Shown here one piece after another: positions 13,810 through 53,402 of a DNA stretch of 64,000 bases (position 1 is the first letter of the stretch; each line of letters begins with the position of its first letter). A model generated the notes under the pieces. That model worked only from the letters and a program-made list of their open reading frames with translations. It ran no database searches and was not told the DNA's origin. The position numbers and the translations under genes were made by a program. Source of the DNA: an uncultured Alphaproteobacteria bacterium (GTDB lineage: Bacteria > Pseudomonadota > Alphaproteobacteria > Rs-D84); the NCBI GenBank assembly GCA_944392775.1, contig CALXXV010000003.1:61279-125278 (forward strand), read 5' to 3'.

Positions 13810-15333
13810 ATGAAAATTATCATTCAGGCAGGCGGTCTGGGATCCAGAATGAAAGCGTTGACACACGTAAAACCCAAAAGTCTAATTTCTGCAAAATATA
13901 TGCCAATAATATTTCATCTGTTTAAGAAATATCCAAATGATGAATTCATAATAATCGGAGATTATAAATTTGACGTACTAGATAGATACTTATCTACGTT
14001 CGCCAAAAACGTAAATTATATGCTAATAAAATCAACAACAAAGGGAAATGCCGCAGGAATAAAAGAAGCGGTATCCTATATACCAGATAATGAACCGTTT
14101 ATGATAATATGGTCCGACATTATATTATCAGATACCTTTTATATAAATGAAATTACCAAGGGTTGCCAAGTAGGTTTAGTAGATTTCCATTGTTCTTGGA
14201 GCTTAAAAAATGGGACTTTAATAAACGAAAGCATCCCAGGTAAAGGTGTAGCCGGATTATATATTTTTGATAATAAAAGTTGGTTTGACGACTTTCCTAT
14301 AGAAGGTTCTTTTACAAATTGGCTGGCAGAAAAAAACATACCTTTAACCCCAATATCTTTAATGGGTAGCATAGATGTAGGAACTTTAGAAGCTTATAAC
14401 GAAATTTCAACGACCCTAAATCGCTGTAGACCTTATAATAAAATAGAATTTATCGACGGTAAAGTCGTAAAAACAGGTCTAACCAAAGAAGCGGAAAAAC
14501 TAATTGAACGAGAAATCGTGTGGTATAAAAAAATGGAAATGTGTGGTTTTGAGGCCATACCTAAAATATATAACACCAATCCACTAACTATGGAACTAAT
14601 TCGTGGAAAAAATATATTCCTTACAGAAATGGATGATGCAAATAAAAAAGAAACCATTCGTAAAATGGTTCATGCTTTACAAACTATGCATGGTTACGAA
14701 AAATCGTCCGCTTCTGCATGGGATTTATATACCGAATACTTAAAAAAAACAATTCACAGACTGCAAAGCATAATTTTCGCAATTCCTTTCGGAAACGAGC
14801 AATTTATAAAAATCAACGGAAAAAAATGTAAAAACATAATGTGCAATATAGATATTTTAAGACAGGCCGTCTTAAAAAATTTAATGACAACATATTATGG
14901 TCCAATTCATGGTGATTGCCAACTTACAAACACAATGATTGATGATTGTGGAAAAATATTCTTTATTGACGCACGTGGCTATTTCGGCAAAAGCCAAGTC
15001 TTAGGAGATGTTAGATATGATTGGGCAAAAATGTATTACGCCATACACGGTAATTTTGACCAATTTAACGTAAAAAGATTTACTCTTGATATTTCAGATC
15101 AAGAAGTTTCTTTCGATATCCATAGTGGAGGCTGGGAACATCTAACTGAATATTTCTTAAACCTTATACCCAAAGAAGAAGCAAGCGTAAAAGAAATAAA
15201 ACTTATACATGCAATAATATGGCTATCTTTAGCTTCGCATGCTTGGGAAGACTATGACTCTATGTGTATAGCGTTTTATAACGGAACCTTTTTATTTAAC
15301 GAATGGTTATCGGAGTACGAAAATGAACAGTAA
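13810..15333 (+). CDS. Bifunctional sugar-1-phosphate nucleotidyltransferase (N-terminal) fused to an APH/choline-kinase-fold sugar kinase (C-terminal). LicC-LicA-like or MurU-AmgK-like fusion
   Basis: N-terminal MKIIIQAGGLGSRM NTP-transferase motif. C-terminal Brenner motif IHGDCQLTN and FIDARGYFG. Confidence 0.65.
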   Translation: MKIIIQAGGLGSRMKALTHVKPKSLISAKYMPIIFHLFKKYPNDEFIIIGDYKFDVLDRYLSTFAKNVNYMLIKSTTKGNAAGIKEAVSYIPDNEPFMIIWSDIILSDTFYINEITKGCQVGLVDFHCSWSLKNGTLINESIPGKGVAGLYIFDNKSWFDDFPIEGSFTNWLAEKNIPLTPISLMGSIDVGTLEAYNEISTTLNRCRPYNKIEFIDGKVVKTGLTKEAEKLIEREIVWYKKMEMCGFEAIPKIYNTNPLTMELIRGKNIFLTEMDDANKKETIRKMVHALQTMHGYEKSSASAWDLYTEYLKKTIHRLQSIIFAIPFGNEQFIKINGKKCKNIMCNIDILRQAVLKNLMTTYYGPIHGDCQLTNTMIDDCGKIFFIDARGYFGKSQVLGDVRYDWAKMYYAIHGNFDQFNVKRFTLDISDQEVSFDIHSGGWEHLTEYFLNLIPKEEASVKEIKLIHAIIWLSLASHAWEDYDSMCIAFYNGTFLFNEWLSEYENEQ

Positions 15334-15718
15334 AGAAATTAGATTGTCCAAATTACAACATACTTGGATCCTAGATTTTGATGGAACTTTAGTAAAACAT
15401 AACGGATATAAAGACGGCATTAATAACATAGACGAATGGTTGCCAGGCGCATTGGAATTTCTACGTAATATACCAGAGAACGATTATATTTTAATTTTAA
15501 CCGCCAGAGAAGATAACACTAATGTAAGACAACGAACTATAAAATTTATCAAAGATGCAGGTATAAGATTTAATGATATTAAATTTGGTATCCCAATGGG
15601 TGAAAGGATTTTGTTTAACGACAATAAACCTAGTGGCTTATGTTGCGCCCATGTGTATACACCTGAAAGGAACCAAGGTCTAAAAAATCTTTCCGTAATA
15701 TTTGATAACAATTTATAA
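15323..15718 (+). CDS. HAD-superfamily phosphatase, small HAD-IIIA/GmhB-like
   Basis: Motif I DFDGTL, ILTAR, NDNKPSG. Confidence 0.6.
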   Translation: MNSKEIRLSKLQHTWILDFDGTLVKHNGYKDGINNIDEWLPGALEFLRNIPENDYILILTAREDNTNVRQRTIKFIKDAGIRFNDIKFGIPMGERILFNDNKPSGLCCAHVYTPERNQGLKNLSVIFDNNL

Positions 15719-15732
15719 AACAAGGATAAATC

Positions 15733-16629
15733 ATGCAAATACTTAAACCTATCGTACACGAAACTATATGGGGGGGGAATAAACTAACGCCCTATTCCGG
15801 ATCAGACTGCAAAAAAATAGGCCACTTATATTCAGCAATTGATACAGCAGATTTTAAAAATGAAATCATTTACGGTAAAGACAAAGGAAAAAATCTTCAT
15901 GAATGGTTCTTGGAAAATCGTGACAAATACGGTTTAAGCAACTATCAAGAACTTCCTATATTAATGGCACTGGTAGAAGCAGATGACGATCTTTCAATAC
16001 AGGTACACCCCGACGATGACAAAGCAAAAGAGCTAGAAAATAAACCATTTGGTAAAAATGAATCTTTTTATACATTACAGGCGCCTAAAAAGGGCTGGAT
16101 GTATAATGGTTGCAAAGCTAAGTCTGTAGAAGAAATGCGTACCAAAATAAAAGAAGGTAAAATATCAGAAACATTGGATACAATGCCTTGTTCTGTCGGA
16201 GATTACATTTATATCGTAGGTGGAACTTTACATGCAGCCACCGCAGGTTCCATACATTTTGAAATAGAAGAAAACTGCGAAAAAACCTATAGATTTTATG
16301 ACTATGACAGAGTTGATAAAAACGGGGAAAAACGTCCATTACAATTGGATAAAGCTTTAGCATGTTTAGATGTAAACAAAAAATCTTCTATTCGTCATTA
16401 TAAAAAAGGTGAACCCATTGAAGAAAGAATGTATTCTACGGAATTAGTAAAAGATGTAGATGTTTTTGAAAATAACGGCAATATGTTCGCCTTTGCCGTT
16501 TTACTAAACGGAGAAAAAGAAATTGATGGAATAAAAATTTTCCCGGGTACCGCAATTCTTTTAGACCCTAAAGAAAAATTAGATGTTTCAAATTGCGAAT
16601 TTATAATTGCCAAACCCAAAAGAGCATAA
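15733..16629 (+). CDS. manA: Class I mannose-6-phosphate isomerase (cupin)
   Basis: ETIWGG, LSIQVHPDD zinc-site motif, YRFYDYDR. Confidence 0.7.
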   Translation: MQILKPIVHETIWGGNKLTPYSGSDCKKIGHLYSAIDTADFKNEIIYGKDKGKNLHEWFLENRDKYGLSNYQELPILMALVEADDDLSIQVHPDDDKAKELENKPFGKNESFYTLQAPKKGWMYNGCKAKSVEEMRTKIKEGKISETLDTMPCSVGDYIYIVGGTLHAATAGSIHFEIEENCEKTYRFYDYDRVDKNGEKRPLQLDKALACLDVNKKSSIRHYKKGEPIEERMYSTELVKDVDVFENNGNMFAFAVLLNGEKEIDGIKIFPGTAILLDPKEKLDVSNCEFIIAKPKRA

Positions 16630-16630
16630 T

Positions 16631-17284
16631 ATGAAAGTAAAAGTATTGTGTCCTTCTATTATGTGTGCTGATTTTGGTAGCTTTCGTTCAGAAATTGCGC
16701 AAATGGACGCTGCAGGTATAGATCAATATCATATGGATATAATGGACGGAGAATTCGTACCTAACTTTGCGCTATCTTGGGCAGATTTTGCGGCAGTTAG
16801 AAAAATGACAGAAAAACCTTTAGATGCACACTTAATGGTAAAAGACCCAAGCATACACTTACCTTATGCATTTAAATATGGGGCAGATATAATATACGTA
16901 CATTTTGAATCTGGAAATGCAGCTAAACATTTATACGAAATAAGAAAAAACGGTAGAAAAGTCGGTCTTGCCATAAACCCAGAAACAAGTATAGAAAAAG
17001 TACAAACTCTTTTCCCGATAATTGATTCTTTATTAGTAATGCGGGTTCATCCAGGATTTTCAGGTCAAATTGCTATACCAGAAGTTGAAGAAAAGCTAGA
17101 TAAATTGGCAAAAATAAAAAATAGAAAATTTTCAATACGTTTAGATGGTTGTGTATCACCAGACGTAATTGACAAATGGGCAAAACTGGGTATAGAAGAA
17201 TTCGTATGTGGAACAGCTTCTGAAATGTTCGGGGAAAAAAGAGGCAATCGTTCTTATAAAGAAATAATAGATATTTTAAGGTAA
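16631..17284 (+). CDS. Ribulose-phosphate 3-epimerase-family protein (Rpe/AlsE-like hexulose- or pentulose-phosphate 3-epimerase)
   Basis: HMDIMDGEFVPN, DAHLMV motifs. Start set at MKVKV. Confidence 0.65.
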   Translation: MKVKVLCPSIMCADFGSFRSEIAQMDAAGIDQYHMDIMDGEFVPNFALSWADFAAVRKMTEKPLDAHLMVKDPSIHLPYAFKYGADIIYVHFESGNAAKHLYEIRKNGRKVGLAINPETSIEKVQTLFPIIDSLLVMRVHPGFSGQIAIPEVEEKLDKLAKIKNRKFSIRLDGCVSPDVIDKWAKLGIEEFVCGTASEMFGEKRGNRSYKEIIDILR

Positions 17285-17291
17285 TTTAATC

Positions 17292-18218
17292 ATGAAAAAA
17301 TTTTTTGTAAACGCAGTATGTTCTTTTATTCCATCTAAAACTCATAGAGATTATCTAAGACAAAAAATGATGTATAATCCAATAAATAATATACAAGAAC
17401 AAATAGATAATATAAAAAAAGAGCTAAATAACGCTATAACAAAAATAGATGACGCAGCAACAAAAACAGAAGTATCAAAGATTGAAAAATCTTTATGGCA
17501 ATCAATTACACCACCATTACCCCCAACGGATTATTCTTTCAATGGGCAAAACAACAAACTGCTAGTCTGGGATAAAGAAAAATCAGAATATATTGAAACA
17601 ACAAAAATTATACCGGGTTTATTTTTAAACATAGAAGGTAACAATAATACAATAAAAATCAAAGCTCCAGAAATAATTGAAAGATTAGAACTAACAATGT
17701 TAGGTGATAATCATAAATTCTCTTTAGGCGATTTTACAAACAAGATATATGATAAAAAAATAACTTATCTTATTATATTTATGACTTGCGGAGATTGCGA
17801 ATTAACAATTGGCGACAATCTTGTTGTCAATCCAATGGTTATAATCCACATGTGTGAACGTGGCGTAAAATGCTTTATAGGAGACAACGTGCGATTGGCC
17901 GCAGAATCAAAAATATACGTAAGTGATGCCCACCCAATAATAGATATAGAAAAAAACAAAATAATAAACTATGGCGATTGCAAAAGAGTTTTAAAAATAG
18001 GCAACAACTGTTGGATAGGAACCGGCTGTTTTATAGGCAAAAGCGCCAATCTACCGGACTATACAATCGTCGCAGCACAAAGCAATGTTGTTAAACCATT
18101 TGACGAATCTTACACAGTTATAGGTGGCAATCCTGCACACGTCTTAAAAAGAGGTGTAAAAAGAATTGATACGTGGGAAGAAGCTTTTGAAATAACTAAC
18201 AGTAAAATTAAAGGGTAA
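17292..18218 (+). CDS. Hexapeptide-repeat (left-handed beta-helix) acyl/acetyltransferase with an N-terminal extension
   Basis: Repeated [LIV]GxxxxI hexapeptides: IGDNLVV..., FIGDNV..., KIGNNCWIGTGCFIG. Confidence 0.6.
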   Translation: MKKFFVNAVCSFIPSKTHRDYLRQKMMYNPINNIQEQIDNIKKELNNAITKIDDAATKTEVSKIEKSLWQSITPPLPPTDYSFNGQNNKLLVWDKEKSEYIETTKIIPGLFLNIEGNNNTIKIKAPEIIERLELTMLGDNHKFSLGDFTNKIYDKKITYLIIFMTCGDCELTIGDNLVVNPMVIIHMCERGVKCFIGDNVRLAAESKIYVSDAHPIIDIEKNKIINYGDCKRVLKIGNNCWIGTGCFIGKSANLPDYTIVAAQSNVVKPFDESYTVIGGNPAHVLKRGVKRIDTWEEAFEITNSKIKG

Positions 18219-18222
18219 CACT

Positions 18223-19335
18223 ATGAAAAAGGTAAAAATAAGATTTGTAAATGGAGATAAAATAAGACGCTTTTATGTTTTTAACAAACCCCTTTTTCAA
18301 TATATGAGAAAAAACGGTAGGTTAAAAATAGAAATGTGTAAAAAAAGAAAACCTAAACCGGGTCAAAGAGTATTTTATTTAAAAGTTCATCGCGTTCATC
18401 AAACTAGTTTCGATTGCATACAACATTGGTTAGACATTATAGCGAGAATGGATGCCTTTGTTTATTTTGTTTGTGATAACAAACAAATGTGGAAAGGAAT
18501 TTTTAAAAAACCATGTTTTTTTTATAACCAAGATTTTGATTTTATAAAAAGTGACAGAAAAACGTTAAAAAAAGAAATACCTTTGATTTTACATAACGTA
18601 ATAAGACAAAAATTATGGCATAGAATTGCTTATTCAATGATGACGCCTTTTGTACACGCTGCTAAACATAATTATTCACGAACGTATAATATAGACGCAG
18701 ACGATATAATGATTCTTACAAAACCAGAATTAATTGCGGAAGGGTTAAAAAAAGCCGAATTTTATGCCGAAGAAAATGATCTTGATTGTTTTAATTTTGA
18801 TATGTTCGTTTCAAAATCTTTCGGTGTACATTGGTCTTTCGGTATAGTTTATGTACGCAAACCACAAAAATGTTTGAATATAATAAAAGAAAATATCGGA
18901 TGGCGCTATAATGAATACTTAATAAAAAAATATTCTACTTATTATGTAAACGAATTTAATTTTAACGTCGATTGGCTATTTACTTTTCTAAGAGACACCC
19001 AACAATTAAACTTAAAAACGTTTTATATAGAAGGTTCTATGGTAATTCATATGCCTGATATAGCTATTTCCAGACATTGGGCTTTCGTTCTTAAATGGAA
19101 AGATGGCACCCTTTATTTACCTGTTCTGGAAAGATTATATAACGATAAAACATGGCGTAACATCCCAATATTTAAAAATTGTATAAAAATTGATATCGGT
19201 CTTACAGATGAATGCGTCTCGGATTTCTTAAATGAATTCTATATGACAGATTATGTTTTTGAAAATAGCATATTAAATATAGCAAAAGAAAGAAGACTTA
19301 TTTCAAACACAATGTATCAAAAATATATAAGCTAG
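18223..19335 (+). CDS. Hypothetical protein in the glycan cluster (possible glycosyltransferase)
   Basis: Context only. Confidence 0.35.
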   Translation: MKKVKIRFVNGDKIRRFYVFNKPLFQYMRKNGRLKIEMCKKRKPKPGQRVFYLKVHRVHQTSFDCIQHWLDIIARMDAFVYFVCDNKQMWKGIFKKPCFFYNQDFDFIKSDRKTLKKEIPLILHNVIRQKLWHRIAYSMMTPFVHAAKHNYSRTYNIDADDIMILTKPELIAEGLKKAEFYAEENDLDCFNFDMFVSKSFGVHWSFGIVYVRKPQKCLNIIKENIGWRYNEYLIKKYSTYYVNEFNFNVDWLFTFLRDTQQLNLKTFYIEGSMVIHMPDIAISRHWAFVLKWKDGTLYLPVLERLYNDKTWRNIPIFKNCIKIDIGLTDECVSDFLNEFYMTDYVFENSILNIAKERRLISNTMYQKYIS

Positions 19336-19352
19336 AAACGTTAGAGGAAAAC

Positions 19353-20498
19353 ATGTCACTTTGTCGGATGTTTTTTTATAAAAAAATATGCCGTAATAAC
19401 CCTTGGGCCCAAGAAGATATTTTTTATATTTTGTTTGGCATATTTCGTTTAAAAAAAACATCCCTAGGTGGCAAAGATTTGCGCCTACTGGGAATAAGAA
19501 TTTTTGTACAAAAAATACAATGCCATTATAAAATAACAAAATTTTTTGGGATCACATTTTATAGACAAAATTTACAAAAAAAACTTTTAAAAAAAATATT
19601 TAAAAAATTACCAAAACAATTTAAAGATATTTATATCATACGCCACAATATAGGAGAAAGTTATATATATCTTACCCATTTAAAAGCTTGGATTTCAGCA
19701 AACAAAAGTAAAAAACCATTACTCGTAATATGGCAAAAAAAATATAAGTCCTTTTATAAAATGTTTGCAGACAAACAAATCGCTATGAAGTACATAGATA
19801 TAAAACAAAACGATATTCAATCTGCTCTGGATTCTGAAATAATACATTACAAAGGAAGAACTATATTTTGCCCTACTCCAAATATAGGGAATGCTATAAA
19901 TTCATTATTTGAAAAAGATGAAAAAACAAATTTTTATTCTTACATCTGTAAAGATTTTAATCTAACTAAAAAAGCCAATATACAAAAGCCTAAAAATTCC
20001 TATAAAACCGATAGCCTAATAAATAATAAAATTAAAAAACATATAAAACTGCCATTTGTAATAATACTGCCTTTCGCAAAATCTTTATCGGAATTGTCGG
20101 AAGATTTTTGGACAAGATTAGTATCGGAATTTAAGAAAAAAGGTTACGATGTATTCATAAACGGAAATACAACGACTTTATCAGAACGACTTAAAGAAAA
20201 TACCGTAAATTTTAAAACAGATCTTTCAGAAATATTTGCCTTAGCAAAAAAATCCTCTGGGATCATAGGTCTTGCTTCGGGTTTATCTGTATTTTTAACA
20301 GCAAGTAATCGCCCAATGGATTTAATATACACTCAATTTAAAGTTTTTGAACCGCAAATATCATCTGGACAAGTTATGAAATTATATTCCGTTCATCACT
20401 TACCTAATGTAAAAGGAAACGTTAGAGAGTACGACATACAAAAATATTCAGAATCACAATTAATAAACAAAATTATCAAAAACTATAAAAAACAATAA
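19353..20498 (+). CDS. Hypothetical Lys-rich protein in the glycan cluster (possible glycosyltransferase). N-terminal ~100 codons are low-complexity and contain A8/T8 tracts, so the true start is uncertain
   Basis: Context. Homopolymer tracts at 19373-19395, 19448-19456, 19575-19610. Confidence 0.3.
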   Translation: MSLCRMFFYKKICRNNPWAQEDIFYILFGIFRLKKTSLGGKDLRLLGIRIFVQKIQCHYKITKFFGITFYRQNLQKKLLKKIFKKLPKQFKDIYIIRHNIGESYIYLTHLKAWISANKSKKPLLVIWQKKYKSFYKMFADKQIAMKYIDIKQNDIQSALDSEIIHYKGRTIFCPTPNIGNAINSLFEKDEKTNFYSYICKDFNLTKKANIQKPKNSYKTDSLINNKIKKHIKLPFVIILPFAKSLSELSEDFWTRLVSEFKKKGYDVFINGNTTTLSERLKENTVNFKTDLSEIFALAKKSSGIIGLASGLSVFLTASNRPMDLIYTQFKVFEPQISSGQVMKLYSVHHLPNVKGNVREYDIQKYSESQLINKIIKNYKKQ

Positions 20499-20513
20499 AA
20501 GTCAGGTCTTTCT

Positions 20514-22298
20514 ATGAAAACACCTAATAAAATAAAAAATCGCATAGCAAATAATATGTTTGTAAAAAATTACAAACGTATGTGGCCGTACATAAAACCA
20601 TATTGGTTTCCTGGTTTAATGTCATTAGTAATAACTATTCCTATAGGATCTTTGGATGCAGTAATTGCTTTGTCATTAAAACCTTACATGGATTTAGTTA
20701 TGGTTGAAAAATCGGTACAAACTGCGTGGTATATACCACTTGCCATAATAGCTTTTACCTGTATTCAAGGCGGGTTAACTTATGCCGCAAATTATTTAAA
20801 TACGTGGGTCGGTGCAAAAATAACAAACTTGTTAAAACTTGACCTTTATAAAAAAATGTTAGATTTTGAAACAAACTTCTTTAATACAAGAAATTCAGGC
20901 GACATAATATTTATGTTCAATAATAACGCAGATCTAGCCTGCGCAGGTCTGCTTACAAATCTTAAAAACTTTGTACAAAAACTATTTACAGCAATATTTC
21001 TTATCGCGGTATTGTTTTATAATTCTTGGCAACTTGCTTTTTTATGCGTTGCTATTCTAATAGGTGCGTTTTTACCAATGAGTTCTCTTAGAAAAAAAAT
21101 AGACTCGGTAATGAGTCAATCTATTGCGGCAGACGCAGCATTATTAACGGCATATAACGAATCTTATTCTGGAAACAAAACTGTAATATCTTATAACCTG
21201 TCCGAACACCAAAAAGGAAAATTTAATAACGTTCTTGATGGCGTTTTTCGCCTAAAAATAAAAATGTTACAAAAAACCAGATGGCTTACCCCTGTAATGC
21301 ATGTAATTCTTTCCGTTGGTATCGGTTTATCAATTTGGTTCGGGTCTTTCTTGATATTAAATGGAGAAATCTCAGCCGGTAATTTTGTATCTTTTTTAAC
21401 CGCACTTGTCATGCTTTATACCCCTATGAAAAGTATAGGATCAAATTATAATTCTGTTTTAATGTCTTTTATGGCAATAGATAGGGTATTTGACATATTA
21501 AATACTACCCCTGCAATAACGGATAAACCAAACGCTAAAGAAATGCCAAAACACCATAAAACAATAGAATTTAAAAACATAGGCTTTGAATACACACATA
21601 ATGTTCCCGTTCTTAAATCAATAAACCTTACGGTAAGACAGGGCGAAACTATTGCATTAGTTGGAAATTCTGGTGGCGGGAAAACAACACTTGTAAATTT
21701 ATTACCACGCTTCTATGACGTTACAAATGGTCAAATTTGCATTGACGGTACAGATATAAGAGATTTTACCTTGCAATCATTACGACAAAATATAGGGGTC
21801 GTATTTCAAGACAATTTCTTATTTGCAGGAACAATCCGAGAAAACATTATGCTGGGGAACAAAAACGCAACAGAAGAAGAATTAAACAACGCAGTAAAGA
21901 TGGCATATCTTGATAACTTCGTTTCTAGTTTAAAAGACGGTCTAGACACAGAAATTGGTGAACGTGGTATATTGCTATCAGGCGGCCAAAAACAAAGAGT
22001 TGCAATTGCTAGGGCTTTTTTAAAAAACGCCCCTATATTAGTATTAGATGAAGCAACATCCGCACTTGATAATCGCGCAGAGTCGGTTGTTCAAAAAGCA
22101 ATAGAAAACCTGATGCACGACAAAACAGTGTTTGTAATTGCTCACAGATTATCAACGATCAGAAACGCATCAAAAATAGTTGTTATAAATAACGGAGAAA
22201 TAGTAGAAACAGGAACCCATGAAGAACTTATAAACCTAAAATGTGGCGCATATAAAACTTTATACGACATGCAATTCAAAGACAATGATAGAAAATAG
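20514..22298 (+). CDS. ABC transporter, fused permease-ATPase (MsbA-like lipid/glycolipid exporter)
   Basis: Six-TM N-terminus. Walker A GNSGGGKTT, signature LSGGQKQRVAIARA, Walker B ILVLDEATSALD. Confidence 0.8.
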   Translation: MKTPNKIKNRIANNMFVKNYKRMWPYIKPYWFPGLMSLVITIPIGSLDAVIALSLKPYMDLVMVEKSVQTAWYIPLAIIAFTCIQGGLTYAANYLNTWVGAKITNLLKLDLYKKMLDFETNFFNTRNSGDIIFMFNNNADLACAGLLTNLKNFVQKLFTAIFLIAVLFYNSWQLAFLCVAILIGAFLPMSSLRKKIDSVMSQSIAADAALLTAYNESYSGNKTVISYNLSEHQKGKFNNVLDGVFRLKIKMLQKTRWLTPVMHVILSVGIGLSIWFGSFLILNGEISAGNFVSFLTALVMLYTPMKSIGSNYNSVLMSFMAIDRVFDILNTTPAITDKPNAKEMPKHHKTIEFKNIGFEYTHNVPVLKSINLTVRQGETIALVGNSGGGKTTLVNLLPRFYDVTNGQICIDGTDIRDFTLQSLRQNIGVVFQDNFLFAGTIRENIMLGNKNATEEELNNAVKMAYLDNFVSSLKDGLDTEIGERGILLSGGQKQRVAIARAFLKNAPILVLDEATSALDNRAESVVQKAIENLMHDKTVFVIAHRLSTIRNASKIVVINNGEIVETGTHEELINLKCGAYKTLYDMQFKDNDRK

Positions 22299-22304: not shown

Positions 22305-23327
22305 TTATTTTTGATATAAATTCCACAGGTAATCAAACTGCTTGGTAAAGGCTTTATCTTCTTGCTCAAAAAACATACAATTTTCTGCGTTTGATTCCGT
22401 CGCACTTTCTGTCCAGTTATAGCTACCGCTTTCTATTCTTTTTCCGTCAAATACAGCAAACTTATTATGCATTATCTTATGACCAGTATTTGTTATAACA
22501 GGAATTCCAGCTGATTCAATTTCATCAACCAACGAATACTTGCCTTTTGATTGCAACCTATCTGTAATTACTCTTATTTTTGCGCCACGTTCTTTGGCAT
22601 CTATTATCGCATCAACTATATTCTGGTTGGTGATAGAATATACTGCAATGTCTATCTTCTTTGCCTGATTGATTTCGGCAATTATATTATTTTCACATTC
22701 GGAACCTGGGGTAAAGTAAATTTCTATCCACTTTTTATCAGAAACAGCAGCGACAGGATCTTGTATATAATCGGTTTCAATCTCTTTATTATCCTTACCG
22801 AACAATTTTTTCCAGAAAGAAACTTTATCATCGTTTTTTATTTTCAACCCCAGCGTATCATATACCTGACGTTCAAAATCACTTCCTTTTTGTGCAATTA
22901 ACAATAAAATTTCTTCGTCGTCCTTTCTGGCGATTACCAAAGTATCACCGGCATACGCTGCCCGCATAACATCGTTTTTACGATAGTATAATTTATACTT
23001 ACGATTTCCATTTAATGATTTCGGTGTATAATAATACCAAGTTGTTTCACCCTCATGTTCAATTTCTTTATCACCTTTATACACAAACTGGGTATCATAA
23101 TAAACTTTATCAGCTCCAAGTACATTTATAAGTGCTTTAGTCCCTTGAATTTCTACGCTGGTACTATTATTGCCTTTATACAAAGAATCATTCTTTGCAA
23201 GCGTTTTTACCGCAATGGTTGAATATTTCGCTAAATCTGAAACATTAAAAGCCAAAACTTGTACGGGAATTAAAAACAAAAAAATTCCCATAGACAATTT
23301 CACGAAAAATCGTCCGACTATTTTCAT
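22305..23327 (-). CDS. Secreted phospholipase-D-superfamily protein with a single HKD motif (Nuc-like nuclease or PLD)
   Basis: HNKFAVFDG...GSYNWT HKD motif. N-terminal hydrophobic signal. Confidence 0.6.
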   Translation of the reverse strand: MKIVGRFFVKLSMGIFLFLIPVQVLAFNVSDLAKYSTIAVKTLAKNDSLYKGNNSTSVEIQGTKALINVLGADKVYYDTQFVYKGDKEIEHEGETTWYYYTPKSLNGNRKYKLYYRKNDVMRAAYAGDTLVIARKDDEEILLLIAQKGSDFERQVYDTLGLKIKNDDKVSFWKKLFGKDNKEIETDYIQDPVAAVSDKKWIEIYFTPGSECENNIIAEINQAKKIDIAVYSITNQNIVDAIIDAKERGAKIRVITDRLQSKGKYSLVDEIESAGIPVITNTGHKIMHNKFAVFDGKRIESGSYNWTESATESNAENCMFFEQEDKAFTKQFDYLWNLYQK

Positions 23328-23349
23328 ATACTGTATTATTTTACACAAA

Positions 23350-24228
23350 TCACATATTTTGCAAGTGCAAAAGAACTTGTTCGGACACCAAACGGACGCA
23401 ATCAGGTATTATGCCATTACCAAGTTGTTTTCTTATTCGTGACGACGATAAATCTTCGGGGAATACAAACGTATCCGGCAACCCCATTACTTTTTTCGTT
23501 TCCGATAGTGTTATTTCATGTTCAATGCCATCAACCAAATAAGACATCCAATTATAAGGTTCTTTATATCTTTTATGGTTATGCGCCGTTAATATCGTAT
23601 ATCCAACATCTCTATTACAAGTTTTGCAATTAAAAACATCATGCATAGTAAATTTTAATGGTACGGGGTCTGGAAACCTAAACGTACTGGTTTCCTGATT
23701 TTCACCCAGAAACCCAACCATAAAGACCCGTTGTCTTATTTGCGGTATGCCACAATCACAACCTTTGATTACTTTATAATGAAACGAATAACCGGCGTTT
23801 CTAAACAAGTCGTGAATTATGCGAAAACTTCTGCCTCCTTCTGCCGTCAGCAATCCTTTTACATTTTCTAAAATAAACGCTTTTGGCATGCATTGTTTTA
23901 TTATATTCAAGACATAAAAGAACATATTACCTTTATCGTCTTTGTCGTCTTTCAGACCTTTACGAAGTCCAGCCATAGAAAACGACTGGCACGGCGGACT
24001 GCCGACCAAGATATCAAATTCGGGAATATCACTTGGATTAAGCTCACGAATATCCGTTGGATAATTATTATTTCTAACGCAAGGCAGGTCTGGAAAGTTT
24101 GCAAGAAAGGTCTGACGGGCATATTTATCAATTTCGCACGATAAAACATTTTCCATTGGCAAGTCTTGCAGTCCCAGTTCCCAGCCACCGATACCAGAAA
24201 ACAAGTTTATATATTTATATTTTTGCAT
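23350..24228 (-). CDS. DNA (cytosine-5)-methyltransferase (orphan; no cognate REase evident)
   Basis: INLFSGIGGWELG, GSPPCQSFSMAG, ENVKGL. Start adjusted to MQKYKY with RBS AAGGAG. Confidence 0.8.
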   Translation of the reverse strand: MQKYKYINLFSGIGGWELGLQDLPMENVLSCEIDKYARQTFLANFPDLPCVRNNNYPTDIRELNPSDIPEFDILVGSPPCQSFSMAGLRKGLKDDKDDKGNMFFYVLNIIKQCMPKAFILENVKGLLTAEGGRSFRIIHDLFRNAGYSFHYKVIKGCDCGIPQIRQRVFMVGFLGENQETSTFRFPDPVPLKFTMHDVFNCKTCNRDVGYTILTAHNHKRYKEPYNWMSYLVDGIEHEITLSETKKVMGLPDTFVFPEDLSSSRIRKQLGNGIIPDCVRLVSEQVLLHLQNM

Positions 24229-24369
24229 GAAGGCTCCTTGAGAATAAAAAAGCCCGCTATAAAACGCAGGCAAAGAAAAAACGGGCGACAATGCCGTCCG
24301 TTTTATGCAAATCAGTATATCATATTTTTTATAAAAAATCAAACAAAAAACAAAAAACCGCAGAAGTCT

Positions 24370-26619: not shown

Positions 26620-26648
26620 TTGAATTTTTTGTCAAAAAGTGTTATAAT
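26620..26648 (+). promoter_or_regulatory. Sigma70-like promoter TTGAAT-N17-TGnTATAAT
   Basis: TTGAAT 26620-26625, extended -10 gtgtTATAAT 26643-26648. Lies 4 nt upstream of the 812-aa ORF. Confidence 0.5.
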
Positions 26649-26651: not shown

Positions 26652-29090
26652 TTGGGTATAAAGCAACAGAGGTTTCTGATGGCAGATGTAAATATGAACG
26701 ATTTTCTTTTGCAATATTATATGCAGTTGCATTTCAATGCAATGCCACCTGAAATCTTTGCTAAATATCAAGATTATGTAAAAGCAGATGACTTCCGTGG
26801 TAATATGAAAGACTGGAAGTCAAAATTAATGCATCAAGACAATAGTGGTAAATGGGTAAAAAATGGCCTACCTGATCCAAATGATGCAAACGGGAATTTC
26901 CATCTGACTGATGATGAATGGAAAAAATTATTTAATGCCTTCCAAGGCGCTATGCGCAGTATGTCTGCCAATACAAAAAGTTTCGCAGAAAACGCCAAGG
27001 CAAATGCTTTCCTTGAAGAATATTTTGGTGACCCTGCAACCCACCTTTTCTCGAACGGAACCGCAAATCAGACTGCAGAAGCACAAATTCAAGTCCTGAA
27101 AAATTTGCTGTCTGATAACAATTTTCGATCAACTTTAAATTTCTATATAAAAGATCTTTTAAAAGAAGCAGAAATTTCTTACTCTGATTTATTGAGTGGT
27201 ATTAATTCTAAAAAATATAATACTGACCCTAAATTCCAAACAACTTTAAAACAAGTTGCAAGTTATATGAACTATTATGTTCATAACGACCAAAATTTAG
27301 CCACCTCACCTTATGGTTCACAAGATTTTTCAGCAATTGAATCTGGTTTTGACGATACAACCGTTCCACAAAACAAACTTGATTACTTTAAAAGAAATTA
27401 TAAAACGCTTTTAAATACTCTGCATAACGATTCCAAAGTTTATGAAGTATTTAAAAGTTTTGACAAAGGTAAAATCTCTAAATCTTTAGATGCAGCATTA
27501 AGCAAAGTAGATTATGCAAATAAAGATAGCAAAGATTATGTCCCTCCAAAACGCAGTGACGAATTAACCCCATGGCAACACTTACAAGGTGAAATAAGCG
27601 ACACCCTAGAAGATTACATGGGAAAATATATTCATCTGCGTGGTGATAGATTATATTTTTCTGATTCAGCAAAACTAATTATAAAAGCAATTGACGGAAC
27701 AAAATTTAAACCAACTGACGGTATTGCCAAAGTATTAGAAAACACGGGAAAAATAAAAGAAAACTTACTTTATAAATCCCCACGTGCCACAGACCATTTT
27801 GATTGGTTTTCTAAAACGTTGGGCGAATTAAAATCCACTATGCCCAAGGCTTTTGAAGGTGCTTTAAAAAATGCACGCCAAATGAAAGCGCTGATAGAAG
27901 AAATGATTATCAAAGCAGTCCGCGAAAATAAAATAGATGAAGCAAAAACTGCTATGGAAGTTCTATCCGTAATTAAGTACGGCTATACAACCAGTAAAAT
28001 TATGGACGCCTTTAGCAAAGAACAATTAACAATTTTCTCTGACGGTGGATTGTCTTGGAATAAAAATGAAGGGGTAAAATTTGTTACAACGGCTATGGAC
28101 AAAAGCATAAAATCCGCATTTATGGGTGTTGGTTATGCTATTACTATGGCAGGAAATGCATACAAACTATCTGGCAGTAAATTTAACGGAAAAACAAACC
28201 GCATAAAAAGCCAAAGGGATGCATGGCTTAATGACAATGCCACAAGATTGCAAGTTGCAACACAAAAACGAGATACAGAAAATCAAATTGATATAGCAGA
28301 CCGAAGCAATCAAGAAGCTATACTACAAGGTACCGGCATAACCGACCAAACAATAGCCCAAGAAAAACAAAACCTTGAAACTTTAAAACAAGATGCAGAA
28401 CAAAAACACTCTGCTTTAGAAAATGCTTCGACAACTTATAATAATGCAAAAAATCTTATCGATGAAGATGCATCTTATACTGCACAAATAAATCAATTAA
28501 ATGCTGATATGCAAAAAATTGCTGCAGATATAGCACAAATAGATAATGATTTACGAAATCCTAATACTTTTGCAGGAATACCGCCTGCTGTTGCAAATGC
28601 GCTTGCAAATGACCTAATAAAGCAAAAGCGCGACAAACAAAACCTTGGTCAAAAGAAATTAAAACAAGCACAAGATTTAAGAAATCAACAAATGCAAATT
28701 AATCCGCAAGCCTTAGCAAATGCACATGCTAATATCGGACAATATCAACAAAATTTTGTAAACGCAGAAAGAGATTATAATACTGTACAAGCAAGCTCAG
28801 ATGATTTAAGTACAAAAATAAATGATTTTACACTTGCGTCAAGCCGTATAAAAGAACTTAACGACAGAATAAACAAAAGAAATGAAGAGGTTTCAAACTG
28901 GGATAATAACAATAAAGATAAATATAAAGAACTTATGGCATACTGGGACTTCTTAGAATCTGGTCGGGATTCTCATACAGGCAAAATGTATTCTTGGATG
29001 CTGGGCAGCGCAAAGAAAAAGCAAGCAAAATTTGACGCGAATAAAATTGCTCAACTTCAGGCGTATATGTCTAATTATAATGTTGCTTGA
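26652..29090 (+). CDS. Large hypothetical protein (812 aa) with a coiled-coil-rich, Q/N-rich C-terminal half; effector-like
   Basis: Long ORF with own promoter and terminator. No recognisable enzymatic motif. Confidence 0.5.
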   Translation: MGIKQQRFLMADVNMNDFLLQYYMQLHFNAMPPEIFAKYQDYVKADDFRGNMKDWKSKLMHQDNSGKWVKNGLPDPNDANGNFHLTDDEWKKLFNAFQGAMRSMSANTKSFAENAKANAFLEEYFGDPATHLFSNGTANQTAEAQIQVLKNLLSDNNFRSTLNFYIKDLLKEAEISYSDLLSGINSKKYNTDPKFQTTLKQVASYMNYYVHNDQNLATSPYGSQDFSAIESGFDDTTVPQNKLDYFKRNYKTLLNTLHNDSKVYEVFKSFDKGKISKSLDAALSKVDYANKDSKDYVPPKRSDELTPWQHLQGEISDTLEDYMGKYIHLRGDRLYFSDSAKLIIKAIDGTKFKPTDGIAKVLENTGKIKENLLYKSPRATDHFDWFSKTLGELKSTMPKAFEGALKNARQMKALIEEMIIKAVRENKIDEAKTAMEVLSVIKYGYTTSKIMDAFSKEQLTIFSDGGLSWNKNEGVKFVTTAMDKSIKSAFMGVGYAITMAGNAYKLSGSKFNGKTNRIKSQRDAWLNDNATRLQVATQKRDTENQIDIADRSNQEAILQGTGITDQTIAQEKQNLETLKQDAEQKHSALENASTTYNNAKNLIDEDASYTAQINQLNADMQKIAADIAQIDNDLRNPNTFAGIPPAVANALANDLIKQKRDKQNLGQKKLKQAQDLRNQQMQINPQALANAHANIGQYQQNFVNAERDYNTVQASSDDLSTKINDFTLASSRIKELNDRINKRNEEVSNWDNNNKDKYKELMAYWDFLESGRDSHTGKMYSWMLGSAKKKQAKFDANKIAQLQAYMSNYNVA

Positions 29091-29130
29091 TTTTTTGGTG
29101 CTTTTATGTTATAATCACATGCATGATTTA

Positions 29131-29160
29131 ACCGCCATTCTGGCGGTTTTCTTTTTTCTT
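29131..29160 (+). terminator. Rho-independent terminator ACCGCCA-TTC-TGGCGGT followed by TTTCTTTTTTCTT
   Basis: 7-bp GC stem plus U-rich tail, 40 nt after the stop of the 812-aa ORF. Confidence 0.65.
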
Positions 29161-29190: not shown

Positions 29191-29763
29191 ATGGCTCGCA
29201 TTTTACAAATTCGTCGTGGCACAACTGCTCAAAACAATAATTTTACAGGGCTTTCCGGTGAAATTACCTTCGATACAGATGCAAAAACAATTCGCGTTCA
29301 TGACGGTCAAACACTTGGTGGGTTTCCGCTTGCCCGCGCAGACGACACATCTTCTGCCAATGATACAAACTTTGATATAAATTCTGTTCCAGATGAATTC
29401 TGGACGGAATTATTCGCCAATTTTAATCTTGTGCCATTTAACGTATTAGAAAGCAGCCTTTTACCAGTTGTAAATAGCACTTTCTTGGATTACACTTTTA
29501 ACTGTGATCAAATCGCTAAAATCGTCCAGACATTTTTAGTATGTCAAACACCAGAAGCAGGTTATAGCATCAATGAAAAAGTCTCTTCCTTTGGAATAGC
29601 AGATAGGACAAACCCCATTCCAAACACATATTTAGAAGAAGATGGTTTACACGTAAGGCTACCAATAGATCAAAAATCTTTCTGGGTTAGCCACAAAGAA
29701 ACAGGCGCAACAACAAATATAACTAACGATAACTGGAAAATTTTATTCAGAGTTTACTGTTGA
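29191..29763 (+). CDS. Phage tail-fibre-like protein with an Mtd_N-type N-terminal domain. Paralog of 51814-52275
   Basis: MARILQIRRGTTAQNNNFTGLSGEITFDTDAKTIRVHDGQTLGG matches the conserved phage tail-fibre/Mtd N-terminal motif (QIRRGT..GE...DT.....DG.T.GG). Confidence 0.55.
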   Translation: MARILQIRRGTTAQNNNFTGLSGEITFDTDAKTIRVHDGQTLGGFPLARADDTSSANDTNFDINSVPDEFWTELFANFNLVPFNVLESSLLPVVNSTFLDYTFNCDQIAKIVQTFLVCQTPEAGYSINEKVSSFGIADRTNPIPNTYLEEDGLHVRLPIDQKSFWVSHKETGATTNITNDNWKILFRVYC

Positions 29764-49559: not shown

Positions 49560-49660
49560 CTAGTGTTTCCGACTTTATTCCCAAACGGGTGGATGCGCAT
49601 GTCATATATTGAAAGCATGCGGGATTAGAAAAAGCTTTTCTGATTGTTTGAACATCCACC
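49560..49660 (+). promoter_or_regulatory. Structured leader upstream of the RgpF-like gene: 9-bp stem GGGTGGATG...CATCCACCC enclosing CGCATG...CATGCG
   Basis: Direct reading. Lies between the candidate RNA terminator and the start codon at 49689. Confidence 0.35.
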
Positions 49661-49688
49661 CCCAAAAGTAAAAAAGGCTAGGAAAAAA

Positions 49689-50588
49689 ATGTCAAAAAGA
49701 TTGTTTATATTTGCTGCATATGATAAAGATAGTATTATAGATGAAACATTATTTTATTATTTAAAAAAACTATCTGAACTTGGCGACATTATATTTACAA
49801 TGGATAATGATAATGTCAGCAAAAATGAATTAAATAAAATTGCAAAAATCCCAAACGTGTTAAGCGTAATGGCGAAAAGACATGGTGAATATGATTTTGG
49901 GTCTTATAAGCGCGGATATAGCTATGCAAAAAATCATAAAATTTTAAAGAACTATGATTTTATATATTTTGTAAATGACTCTGTATACGGTCCATTATTT
50001 GATTTAAAACCAGTGTTGGAAAAAATGGAATCTGAAAACGCGGGTAACGCATGGGGAATGATGGGGCTTCATAACACCGAAAAAGAACAATACGGTTATC
50101 CTGACCATGTACAATCTTGGTTTGTCGGAATTGCAGGAAAAATTTGCCAAGAATCTTGGTTCGATGAATTTATGAGTAATATAAAACATCAAGATTCAAA
50201 AGAACAAGTTGTTTGGAAATATGAAATAGGTTTAAGTCAATTACTAATGGAACATAACATACAAATAGGAAGACTTGAAGAAAAAATATGCGGTTTAAAA
50301 ATTTATAATGGTCCTATTAAAGGTATACCCTTCTTAAAAAAATTATCAATTCACAATATTCCGAAAACAAAAAATTTATTAAAAATAATCCCACAAGATT
50401 TACAAAATGCTTTTATGGGAAGTATTACTCGATTAGAACTACATAAATCGCCCTATACGACTATTTGGAAAATAAAATTATTTAATAAGATTACAATATT
50501 AATGTTTGAATGTAAAAGAGATAAAAGCGAATATATATTATGGTTATTTAAATTGTTCCCCATAAAATATTTGTGTTACAAAAAATAA
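49689..50588 (+). CDS. RgpF-like (rhamnan synthesis protein F family) polysaccharide biosynthesis protein
   Basis: Family-like sequence. Start adjusted to MSKRLFIF with RBS. Confidence 0.5.
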   Translation: MSKRLFIFAAYDKDSIIDETLFYYLKKLSELGDIIFTMDNDNVSKNELNKIAKIPNVLSVMAKRHGEYDFGSYKRGYSYAKNHKILKNYDFIYFVNDSVYGPLFDLKPVLEKMESENAGNAWGMMGLHNTEKEQYGYPDHVQSWFVGIAGKICQESWFDEFMSNIKHQDSKEQVVWKYEIGLSQLLMEHNIQIGRLEEKICGLKIYNGPIKGIPFLKKLSIHNIPKTKNLLKIIPQDLQNAFMGSITRLELHKSPYTTIWKIKLFNKITILMFECKRDKSEYILWLFKLFPIKYLCYKK

Positions 50589-50631
50589 TATTTACACTAT
50601 TACAAACTATATATAATAAGCCGAATAAAAC

Positions 50632-51804
50632 ATGATAAAAATTATTGAAAACTTAAATTTCCTAAAAAAACTTTCTAAATGGGTTGACGATTTAAAACAA
50701 AACAAATCTTTATTTATACCTATTACAGATAAGCCCTATATATTTACGAAACATAGTCCTAAAATATTCGCATATTATTTACCTCAATTTCATAGCATAA
50801 AAGAAAACGATGAGGCTTATGGAAAAGGTTTTACAGAATGGACAAATGTAGCGAATTGTATACCCCAATTTTATGGACATTATCAACCTAAAATTCCCTA
50901 TGATGTAGGTTTTTATGATTTAAGCCATGTAGACGTAATGTACAGACAAGCAGAACTAGCAAAAATGTATGGAATTTATGGTTTTTGTTTTTATTATTAT
51001 TGGTTTTCCGGGAAACGTTTATTGTATAAGCCTTTAGAAAACTTTCTGAAATCTAACATTGATCTTCATTTTCATTTTTGTTGGGCAAATGAAAACTGGT
51101 CAAAATTATGGGACGGCGGAGATAAAGAAGTATTCTTAAAACAAGAAATAAAAGAAGAAGATGCCAAACATTTTTTTCAAGATATATTACCCTTTATTAA
51201 AGATAAACGTTATGAAAAAATAGATAACAAACCAATTCTTATGATATATAACCCGACCATTTTTAATAAAGATATATTAAAATCTTTTTTATCTGAATTA
51301 ACATACCTATCAAAAAAAGCGGGGTTCAATGGCTTTTATTTTACCGCTAGCGATTTTAAAAAATTTAATCAACCAACCGAATGGGGATTTGATGCCATTA
51401 CAGAATTTCCGCCTCATACAATATCAGAGCTACATAAAGTTCATAAAAAATTTTTATCAAAAAACGCAAATTTCAATGTTATAAACATTGATAACTATAT
51501 AAAAAATAAAAAATTTTTATACTCGACGGATCATACCGTTTTTAAAGCATGTTTCCCCTCATGGGATAATACCCCAAGAAAAACCTATACACAAGGTTGG
51601 TCAATAGAATTTTCTGATATTCTATTTGAAAAATGGTTAGATGAAATAATAAAATGGACAAAAGAAAATAATGATTCTAATAAACAATATATCTATATAA
51701 ATGCATGGAACGAATGGGGCGAAGGTGCCATGCTAGAACCAGATATAAGATATGGTTATAAAAATTTAAATATTGTAAAAAAATGTTTAGAAAAAACCGG
51801 GTAA
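50632..51804 (+). CDS. WbsX-like glycosyltransferase/glycoside-hydrolase-fold protein (LPS/O-antigen associated)
   Basis: KIFAYYLPQFH...GFTEW...YGFCFYYYWF motif pattern. Confidence 0.5.
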   Translation: MIKIIENLNFLKKLSKWVDDLKQNKSLFIPITDKPYIFTKHSPKIFAYYLPQFHSIKENDEAYGKGFTEWTNVANCIPQFYGHYQPKIPYDVGFYDLSHVDVMYRQAELAKMYGIYGFCFYYYWFSGKRLLYKPLENFLKSNIDLHFHFCWANENWSKLWDGGDKEVFLKQEIKEEDAKHFFQDILPFIKDKRYEKIDNKPILMIYNPTIFNKDILKSFLSELTYLSKKAGFNGFYFTASDFKKFNQPTEWGFDAITEFPPHTISELHKVHKKFLSKNANFNVINIDNYIKNKKFLYSTDHTVFKACFPSWDNTPRKTYTQGWSIEFSDILFEKWLDEIIKWTKENNDSNKQYIYINAWNEWGEGAMLEPDIRYGYKNLNIVKKCLEKTG

Positions 51805-51830
51805 CCCCGGTTTTTATGCACCGAAACATT
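51805..51830. terminator. Bidirectional terminator AAAAACCGGG-TAAC-CCCGGTTTTT
   Basis: Between convergent genes. Confidence 0.65.
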
Positions 51831-52911: not shown

Positions 52912-52940
52912 TTAAATCCCGCATAAACGCGGGATTTTCT
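52912..52940. terminator. Terminator AAATCCCGC-ATAAAC-GCGGGATTTT (bidirectional)
   Basis: GC hairpin flanked by A/T runs. Confidence 0.6.
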
Positions 52941-53198
52941 TTATTTTATAACGGCGGTTTTTATTAAAGCGACATCATCTTTTATTCCGTCTAGTTTTAT
53001 TTGCAATTGTCCTATACCAGTTTCTAATATAGTTACTCGATTCTCTAATGTTGTTATTCTGTGATCTGCCCGTTCTAAATCTGCCAGTGAAGAATCTTGA
53101 CGAGCAACCCAATATATCATTCCAGCAACGAAAGCTATCAAAAACCAACTATCCCTTAAAAAATCTATGATGCTCGTCGCTCCTGGTTGCATGGACAT
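52941..53198 (-). CDS. Small single-TM protein with a coiled-coil tail (holin/spanin-like?), at the end of the phage module
   Basis: TM WFLIAFVAGMIYWV followed by heptad-like sequence. Confidence 0.35.
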   Translation of the reverse strand: MSMQPGATSIIDFLRDSWFLIAFVAGMIYWVARQDSSLADLERADHRITTLENRVTILETGIGQLQIKLDGIKDDVALIKTAVIK

Positions 53199-53389: not shown

Positions 53390-53402
53390 TTTTTATTCCT
53401 TT

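Follow-up and report, generated by a model that had tools for sequence, protein, structure and literature searches.

The window analysed here, a stretch of 64,000 nucleotides on contig CALXXV010000003.1, belongs to Candidatus Enterousia, an uncultured gut lineage of the alphaproteobacterial order Rs-D84, as a scan of 185,579 species genomes indicates. It carries two short genes, designated A and B, that open with the same phage-type domain (Mtd_N) and share nothing beyond it. We consider it probable that A and B encode the constant and the variable receptor-binding tips, respectively, of a podovirus-derived particle system that occurs throughout the genus and resembles a gene transfer agent (GTA). 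In the proposed scheme, this T7-like (podovirus-type) system would be inherited vertically across the whole genus, and each tip, probably a trimer, would dock through Mtd_N on a short fibre adaptor encoded at 59408-59956 and contact the target cell with its own, unrelated C-terminal head. Tip A, with a conserved head, would be made only when transcription reads through a terminator in its leader, as one member of a dispersed "late" regulon released by antitermination. Tip B would have its head swapped by recombination, the conserved Mtd_N-coding DNA serving as one arm, and would be physically coupled to a variable polysaccharide cluster in such a way that head and glycan type are inherited together. 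The two genes are as follows.

29191-29763, plus strand: gene A, encoding 190 aa: Mtd_N (aa 1-52), a linker predicted with low confidence (aa 53-60) and, at the C-terminus, a beta-sandwich head that is conserved; putative conserved tip.
51814-52275, minus strand: gene B, encoding 153 aa: Mtd_N (aa 1-52), a short helix and a TNF/C1q-like jelly-roll head; putative variable tip.

Over residues 1-52 the two proteins align without a gap at 56% identity (E 4e-20), and nothing beyond residue 52 aligns, in agreement with the preliminary description of this DNA, which had reported a common N-terminal block followed by unrelated C-termini. That description had also assigned the block to a family of phage tail-fibre N-termini, and profile searches uphold the assignment: Pfam Mtd_N (PF18454) scores 53.0 bits for A and 52.3 bits for B against a gathering score of 26.3, and both proteins match phrog_9648 ("tail protein"). 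The domain sits at the extreme N-terminus of each and can be superposed on residues 1-50 of Mtd from phage BPP-1 (PDB 1yu0, 2iou). As to the heads, structure predictions (pLDDT 89 for A, 86 for B) yield two different beta-sandwiches, Ig-like in A and a TNF-like jelly-roll in B, both of a kind known in phage receptor-binding tips, and to that extent the earlier suggestion of receptor-binding heads holds for the fold. The resemblance to Mtd does not extend further. Mtd has 381 aa, and its C-type-lectin variable region is diversified by a reverse-transcriptase retroelement; neither A nor B has a head with the C-type-lectin fold and variable region of BPP-1-type Mtd, and no reverse transcriptase occurs among the annotated open reading frames (ORFs) of the window, where template repeats were not searched for. 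Diversification by a diversity-generating retroelement as in BPP-1 was rejected on these two grounds, and the cassette exchange described below indicates that head diversity arises instead by replacement of whole heads. Nor are the two genes paralogs on an equal footing, as was first supposed: A is a slow-evolving ortholog at a fixed locus and B is a cassette locus tied to glycan genes. What had escaped notice altogether is that the nearby phage-like module is domesticated genus-wide, that B travels together with polysaccharide genes, and that A possesses a shared promoter-leader signature.

The structural module adjoins B. Only 666 bp, holding two small opposite-strand host genes (DUF4223 and YraN), lie between B and the last module gene, and A is 23 kb from the module; the initial statement that both genes are far from the structural genes therefore fits A and fails for B. 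The module comprises the following features.

52941-63748, minus strand: module overall, ~11 kb including a 3.3-kb host-type insert.
62918-63748, minus strand: major capsid protein (PF19821, E 1.8e-71).
62664-62891, minus strand: p75, small, conserved beside the capsid gene (phrog_18004).
62070-62588, minus strand: gp11-like tail adaptor (phrog_394).
60339-62054, minus strand: gp12-like tail nozzle (phrog_376).
59974-60321, minus strand: p115, conserved charged protein with no assigned role.
59408-59956, minus strand: fibre adaptor ("stub"), 182 aa; putative T7 gp17-type tail-binding N-domain, short helical region, C-terminal DDYG(I/V)L.
58822-59472, minus strand: ATPase half of the large terminase (TerL-N; phrog_38 positions 270-459).
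55491-58825, plus strand: opposite-strand insert of 3.3 kb that splits the terminase.
55491-57044, plus strand: DnaB helicase, in the insert.
57076-58122, plus strand: double HTH_3 regulator, in the insert.
58145-58825, plus strand: p226 (226 aa), in the insert.
54644-55507, minus strand: nuclease half of the large terminase (phrog_38 positions 468-704).
53403-54626, minus strand: portal, T7-type head-tail connector (PF12236, E 7e-78).
53198-53389, minus strand: Bbp19-like protein.
52941-53198, minus strand: p85, transmembrane segment plus coiled coil, last module gene.
52914-52937, either strand: terminator acting in both directions, between p85 and the two host genes (DUF4223, YraN) that part the module from B.

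The portal has 4866 database relatives, the best 120 of which are 86-100% identical, and is present in at least 454 species-representative genomes. In the related loci that we fetched (each a database match with 10 kb per side, numbered with an L), gene order is invariant among the best 80 wherever the contig spans the module, the surrounding chromosomal neighbourhood is conserved in at least 80 species, and dnaB lies inside the module in every species. Median amino acid identities of capsid (86%), portal (85%) and TerL-N (79%) run in step with those of the cellular proteins DnaB (84.5%), BamA (80%) and AckA (86%). Pairwise dN/dS, computed on 25 loci, is 0.04-0.15 for every module gene as compared with 0.047 for DnaB and 0.040 for BamA, values that are rough, since dS is ~1.2 and near saturation. 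The terminase is split exactly between its two domains in all 71-79 species examined, and both halves are under purifying selection. Vertical inheritance under purifying selection, lack of genes for autonomy, a size too small for a phage genome, and separate accessory loci for attachment and lysis with a common leader (whose common control we infer from architecture) all belong to the sequence-level hallmarks by which gene transfer agents are recognised (PMC9254644). With its PF12236 portal, PF19821 capsid and T7-like adaptor and nozzle, and with no tube or tape-measure gene seen, the module differs from the head-tail cluster of RcGTA-like agents (Rhodogtaviriformidae), which is characterised by an HK97 capsid with prohead protease, a PF04860 portal, tail tube, tape measure and megatron. 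By these comparisons it is apparently a domesticated, vertically inherited element and not a prophage, and derives from a podoviral lineage unrelated to RcGTA. The original idea of GTA-style dispersed fibre loci thus agrees with the comparative data better than a prophage does.

One may ask whether the module could instead be an active mobile element, either a temperate phage or a phage satellite, passed among Enterousia cells with A and B as its host-range cassettes. Some ~55 copies are listed in IMG/VR as viral contigs (L190-L242), head swapping is typical of phage host-range evolution, and the structural and packaging genes look complete enough for a capsid and a tail. Nearly all of these viral contigs, however, are the module of 10-12.5 kb cut from host DNA, and an infectious element would hardly be expected to keep one neighbourhood in at least 80 species, to enclose dnaB in each of them and to diverge at the pace of DnaB and BamA. 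The annotated ORFs, both of the window and of the flanks of related loci, include no integrase, replication or lysogeny gene, and distances of tens of kb part the module from the scattered tips, endolysin and muralytic protein. Portal identity drops from 72% straight to 46%, where phage-like contigs of varied GC are reached, and these nearest phage-like relatives have an unsplit terminase (L245, L247, L248) and the canonical order portal-Bbp19-capsid-adaptor-nozzle; the nearest cultured phages are Pelagibacter podophages, at 27-34% identity. We regard a mobile phage as quite improbable.

Two observations on the region upstream of the capsid gene are worth recording. In 10 species (window 63750-63900, minus strand; L022-L089) it contains a strongly conserved series of motifs, namely GACTGA, GGACAATCC, GGACC, TGGCGC, a small hairpin with compensatory changes, GCATAACCA and CAAAAT; the region is unlike a sigma-70 promoter, and in many species a hairpin with a T-run stands ~30 nt ahead of the start codon. 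By eye, no regulatory motif common to this region and to the upstream regions of A and B was evident. The window stops short of the DNA beyond; in a circular 958-kb genome (L072:95-1102) two genes directly upstream of the capsid gene encode a T7 scaffold-like protein (PF05396) and a 114-aa histone-H1-like protein with AKKP repeats (PF07382 HC2).

The link between tips and particle would run through the fibre gene at 59408-59956, which had first been read as truncated. That it is a truncated pseudogene is ruled out by its conserved length, 181-194 aa in all 44 orthologs, with the C-terminal DDYG(I/V)L likewise conserved. Its N-terminal domain matches PF03906 (E 4e-4, 20.4 bits, under the 25.2 cut-off), phrog_1640 (E 4.8e-17) and, in the PDB, the Carin-1 tailspike anchor (E 0.003), and the polypeptide contains neither a long shaft nor a C-terminal receptor-binding domain: it is an adaptor only and, because it is always short, needs a distal part that is encoded separately. 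In several species that part could come from the same operon, since a B-type gene lies directly behind p85 in L073, L085, L089, L099 and L058 and an A-type gene 23 nt behind p85 in L091, which makes the tip the last gene of the module operon there. Within 2 kb of p85, a tip gene is present in 16 of the 38 loci that contain the anchor and in none of the 23 that lack it (Fisher p 1.6e-4, uncorrected for phylogeny). Real podophages offer a precedent, by analogy, for a two-piece design of anchor plus Mtd_N protein: in AH02 a 190-aa protein consisting of a head-binding domain only (gp14) is followed by a 468-aa Mtd_N protein (gp15), and in CRP-3 a fibre protein (gp31) by an Mtd_N protein (gp30). 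In BPP-1, two Mtd trimers are found at the ends of each of six fibres (PMC2408619), which leaves room for two different tips per fibre. The earlier proposal of interchangeable tips for a short fibre is supported by this precedent and by the adjacency, for a fibre that is not truncated.

Gene A resides in a stable setting of its own and is preceded by a leader.

26652-29090, plus strand: p812, clade-specific protein with no known domain, directly upstream of A in nearly all species.
26620-26648, plus strand: p812 promoter, of the same rare type as that of A, TTGAAT-N17-TG-n-TATAAT, with no leader hairpin.
29087-29115, plus strand: A promoter, extended -10, TTGATT-N17-TG-n-TATAAT (n = t), overlapping the p812 stop codon.
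29130-29158, plus strand: terminator in the A leader, a hairpin (AACCGCCA-TTC-TGGCGGTT) with a T-run behind it, located past the promoter and ahead of the A start codon.

Database searches return 337 homologs of A. Among the 120 listed, identity is 49-99% and the alignment takes in 99-100% of the query; wherever a source is named for these, it is a metagenome-assembled genome of an uncultured "Alphaproteobacteria", "Rickettsiales" or unclassified bacterium. The order p812 (714-812 aa), A, ackA (acetate kinase) is kept even in species in which A is 52-53% identical, and this common neighbourhood in distant species identifies A (orthologs 50-73% identical at the fixed locus) as a fixed-locus ortholog and not a mobile cassette. 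The promoter pattern occurs at only 4 sites on both strands of the 64-kb window, two of them ahead of p812 and A. Within the 100-bp gap between these genes, the hairpin begins 14 nt past the promoter and ends ~32 nt ahead of the A start codon; there is no space for a further promoter past the terminator, and transcription of A would thus have to read through it. The arrangement is conserved in 10 species, the letters of the -35 and -10 elements being invariant and those of the stem changing with complementarity kept (for example CCGCC/GGCGG, GGACGAC/GTCGTCC and GACGGCG/CGCCGTC).

The same leader, often with two tandem hairpins, precedes B-type tips remote from the module, and in L108, L127, L130 and L137 the upstream gene is divergent, so that the hairpin cannot be the terminator of that gene. 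A scan of 2.47 Mb of fetched loci found 57 promoter-plus-hairpin sites, 48 of them directly ahead of an Mtd_N gene, in a set enriched for Mtd_N loci. In a second set, 1.5 Mb of portal-centred loci plus the window, in whose selection tips played no part, nine leaders have a downstream ORF: three stand ahead of tips, one ahead of a GH24 endolysin (PDB 6et6, E 6.5e-19), one ahead of a muralytic protein matching phage Gp29 (E 3e-14), two ahead of small ORFs, cut by the contig end, that resemble the C-terminus of the muralytic protein by eye only, and two ahead of a 216-aa protein of no known kind; none of the nine precedes a recognisable housekeeping gene. Their shared architecture suggests that A, the remote B-type tips, the endolysin and the muralytic virion protein may form a dispersed late regulon. 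In a scan of the window Rfam returned three tRNAs only, and no known RNA family was found in the leaders. Candidate antitermination regulators are p226, which has no Pfam, PHROG or PDB match, and the double helix-turn-helix protein, both inside the split terminase.

Beside these, the 216-aa protein (L065:13606-14256; L096), which has the promoter and a double leader terminator, is a candidate for a further member of the regulon. As for p812, it is at most a possible member of the particle system. Its family (353 representatives, 700-900 aa, diverging down to 29% identity) has conserved portions at the N-terminus (~500 aa) and the C-terminus (~50 aa), with a variable coiled coil in between. Identification with a known phage protein, such as an internal core protein or a fibre shaft, is not supported, as no Pfam, PHROG or phage tblastn match was obtained; a PDB profile search gave generic coiled-coil matches only, and PHROG scans of 35 members scattered single matches. 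A 924-aa protein upstream of a remote tip (L106) was rejected as a p812 relative (hhalign probability 0.1%).

Gene B behaves quite differently, as can be seen from its surroundings.

52118-52275, minus strand: Mtd_N-coding arm of B, 100% identical in a sister strain with a different head; one edge of the exchanged cassette.
49708-52117, no strand assigned: strain-variable cassette of 2410 bp with the B head and the WbsX and RgpF glycosyltransferase genes.
51790-51813, no strand assigned: hairpin between the 3' ends of B and WbsX, AAAACCGGG-GTTA-CCCGGTTTT, a shared terminator by eye that the consensus scan did not flag.
50632-51804, plus strand: WbsX-family glycosyltransferase (PF14307, E 7e-108), convergent with B.
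49644-50588, plus strand: RgpF-like rhamnan synthesis protein (PF05045, E 4e-18), first gene of the variable glycan island.

The B family has at least 541 members, and those listed are 133-223 aa long, apart from one 84-aa fragment; the N-domain is near-invariant and the heads are of many unrelated kinds. Two members (P0130 and P0138) match B at every residue from 1 to 54 and show no relationship to it thereafter. The exchange itself is seen in one same-species pair: both flanks recur at 99.3-100% identity in a sister strain (L017/L018; blastn), and between them the cassette is replaced by an unrelated 1740 bp with a gp53-like head, a cytidylyltransferase and LicD. One breakpoint falls after B codon 52-53, at the junction of Mtd_N and head, and the other at the 5' end of the first glycan gene, so that head and glycosyltransferases were swapped as one cassette. 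These data bear directly on the view that A and B are functionless leftovers of ordinary decayed prophages, sharing their N-terminus through common phage ancestry. In its favour, each is a short gene that stands alone and has a phage-type domain, the module is 23 kb away from A, and integrase or lysogeny genes are not seen among the annotated window ORFs. Debris would nevertheless not be expected to leave more than 300 homologs of A, the 120 listed being full-length, at a fixed syntenic position with its promoter and leader conserved in 10 species, nor heads of B replaced with reading frames intact behind a near-invariant N-domain, nor module genes with the low dN/dS given above. Moreover, dead DNA is seldom retained in genomes of less than 1 Mb, and those of Enterousia measure 0.75-1.0 Mb (PMC12306168). 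Mere decay is, in our opinion, very improbable.

The partnership with glycan genes is not a peculiarity of this strain. B-type tips are convergent with a surface-glycan biosynthesis cluster in 16-18 of the 18 annotatable loci (L121 and L133 being ambiguous), in at least four unrelated genomic settings, one next to the module (window, L017, L020, L021, L104, L105) and at least three elsewhere. The neighbours include phosphonate and glycerophosphotransferase genes (L106/107), GT-D, DegT, WbsX and GT2 (L108), WavE (L109, L126), and GT1, GT2, GT8, TOD1 and RgpF (L127, L128, L130, L137, L158, L159). A-type genes never adjoin glycan genes, with the partial exception of L158, in which the A and B loci are adjacent. 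The dispersed layout can be followed in a single genome on one contig of 146,630 bp, on which A is found at ~29 kb, followed by the module at ~48 kb and by a B-type tip at ~139 kb. The most economical reading of the coupling would be that the head recognises the glycan made next door; it could also be the legacy of a phage serotype-conversion module. Shared head/glycan pairs in L023/L024 and L027/L028 may merely reflect close kinship.

The same linkage could be turned against a particle. If A and B had been co-opted as cell-surface lectins or accessories of glycan assembly, the position of B would reflect a role in making or displaying glycan, and it fits such a role that B-type genes abut glycan clusters mostly far from the module, that the B head has a lectin-like jelly-roll fold and that 26 of 70 species have no adaptor gene in the module. 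We find this improbable nonetheless: direct reading of the sequences reveals neither a signal peptide nor a membrane segment in A or B, Mtd_N is otherwise known only from phage fibres, and B is convergent with the glycan operon and thus outside it. A lectin gene would also have no evident reason to close the module operon, as the tip gene does in some species, or to share its leader with an endolysin and a muralytic virion-type protein.

Two further observations may be added. A second cluster in the window (13810-22298, plus strand), apparently for sugar-nucleotide or glycan synthesis, encodes a nucleotidyl transferase, a PMI-like protein, a ribulose-phosphate epimerase, a hexapeptide transferase, two unknown proteins and an ABC exporter, and has no Mtd_N gene adjacent. 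In L106 (5617-5922) a TfoX_N-like gene, whose competence-regulator domain scores below the Pfam cut-off, is found 4 kb from the remote tip; it may be relevant to DNA uptake or a coincidence.

Several points weigh against the proposal that A and B are the constant and variable tips of a GTA-like particle. All data come from metagenome assemblies, in which particle, packaging and transfer are read from genes. The connection of A and B to the adaptor is a putative docking, and the adaptor gene is absent from the module in those 26 of 70 species; its losses are polyphyletic, in at least six separate groups (L030-L101 range) that retain a gap of only 5-72 bp between p115 and TerL-N. It is tempting to suppose that the stub moved next to the remote tips in such species, a solution that had to be rejected since no out-of-module copy occurs in any fetched locus, beside remote tips included. 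As for regulation, no dedicated or Q-like antiterminator protein was recognised, the window's own B has no leader terminator, and the proportion of 48 in 57 carries the enrichment of its sample. As for specificity, the conserved Mtd_N DNA could be a mere recombination anchor, and head and glycan do not co-vary strictly: L020 and L021 share a head and differ in the adjacent gene, which contradicts a one-to-one match of head type and glycan gene set. Lastly, the selection estimates suffer from saturation, the large terminase is split in two, and no small terminase, internal core proteins or ejection proteins were identified.

The last of these points could mean that a particle exists and is no DNA-transfer agent, being instead a device for killing or lysis, or a vehicle for protein or other cargo, for which A and B would provide the targeting tips. 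Some GTA-like clusters in reduced symbionts have indeed lost their tails (PMC9254644). Against such a device, capsid, portal and the two halves of the terminase rank with the best-conserved products, which is hard to explain if DNA is not packaged, and tailocins are without heads; we think it unlikely. We therefore return to a GTA-like particle with tips A and B as the preferred explanation. A wider formulation is that Enterousia, and probably all Rs-D84, maintain a GTA lineage derived from a T7-like podovirus, with scattered late genes under antitermination, a tip-glycan "supergene" and recognition of the same glycan; taken together, these propositions are possible, and we advance them tentatively. 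Were the supergene to exist, a switch of serotype and a change of particle specificity would be achieved in a single recombination event.

Comparison with known systems helps to place the proposed particle. The T7-like module and RcGTA have in common a vertically inherited, phage-derived structural cluster under purifying selection, attachment and lysis genes scattered elsewhere on the chromosome and, for Enterousia as we infer, a surface polysaccharide as attachment target. RcGTA, however, belongs to the siphovirus-type HK97 lineage, with tail tube, tape measure and prohead protease, whereas the Enterousia module is T7-like (PF12236 portal, gp11/gp12-like adaptor and nozzle, gp17-N-like anchor), is apparently regulated through leader terminators and would encode a putative particle. 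The clusters of endosymbionts (PMC9254644) likewise combine phage-like head genes under purifying selection with very small alphaproteobacterial genomes; they are RcGTA homologs, often tail-less, whereas the podovirus lineage of Enterousia keeps tail, adaptor and tips. In AH02, as would be the case here, a short anchor-only protein (gp14) bears a separately encoded, exchangeable receptor-binding protein (gp15). Homology of gp14 and the stub was considered and rejected: gp14 has a P22-type head-binding domain as anchor, the stub an apparent gp17-type one of T7, and they show no sequence similarity, which leaves gp14 as an architectural analogue only. The adaptor-plus-tailspike arrangement of SP6 and K1-5, reportedly set out by Leiman et al. 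2007, is the basis of a further comparison, with the same design of an anchor that bears tips. Both the SP6/K1-5-like phages and AH02 are lytic or temperate phages and not chromosomal fixtures, and in Enterousia the tip genes are not beside the anchor gene.

Two further parallels concern regulation and the glycan. Late control in phage lambda relies on the constitutive promoter PR', the nearby terminator tR' and the antiterminator Q. A strong promoter closely trailed by one or two intrinsic terminators ahead of late structural or lysis genes is what the Enterousia leaders have in common with PR'-tR'; they differ in being ~30-70 nt long and repeated at many dispersed single genes, and no Q-like protein was recognised. 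P22-like prophages have the tailspike gene beside O-antigen-modifying gtr genes, and these glycan genes block re-infection by the same phage. There, as would be the case in Enterousia, the receptor-binding gene adjoins genes that set the structure of the glycan recognised; the neighbour in Enterousia is instead the cell's whole variable polysaccharide cluster, for which a logic of self-recognition and one of exclusion are both conceivable.

A literature search, itself incomplete in coverage, returned no description of this system, which would constitute a domesticated phage of GTA type from a new lineage, distinguished by a new regulatory signature and by the linkage of tip and glycan. If the proposal is correct, domesticated phage particles would gain a new lineage, podovirus-like and very widespread, that arose independently of RcGTA and is present in at least 454 species-level genomes of gut Alphaproteobacteria whose named sources include humans, ruminants, other mammals and birds. 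Genomes of less than 1 Mb would still spend ~1-2% of their DNA on a particle machine, which would bear on how symbionts with reduced genomes escape mutational decay. Kin-restricted exchange or exclusion could be explained, in a way open to experiment, by the tight coupling of the head to the serotype locus, and all members of the regulon should be easy to search for by sequence, given the repeated promoter-terminator leader. In practical terms, the module is already called a provirus by virus-detection pipelines, and its ~55 IMG/VR entries inflate the phage counts of Enterousia.

Finally, the window contains two clusters of restriction-modification type. The first (517-4637) consists of an HNH protein, a C5 methylase and an Eco57I/N6 methylase, and the second (22305-24342) of a PLD-family nuclease and a C5 methylase, located beside tRNA-Lys.

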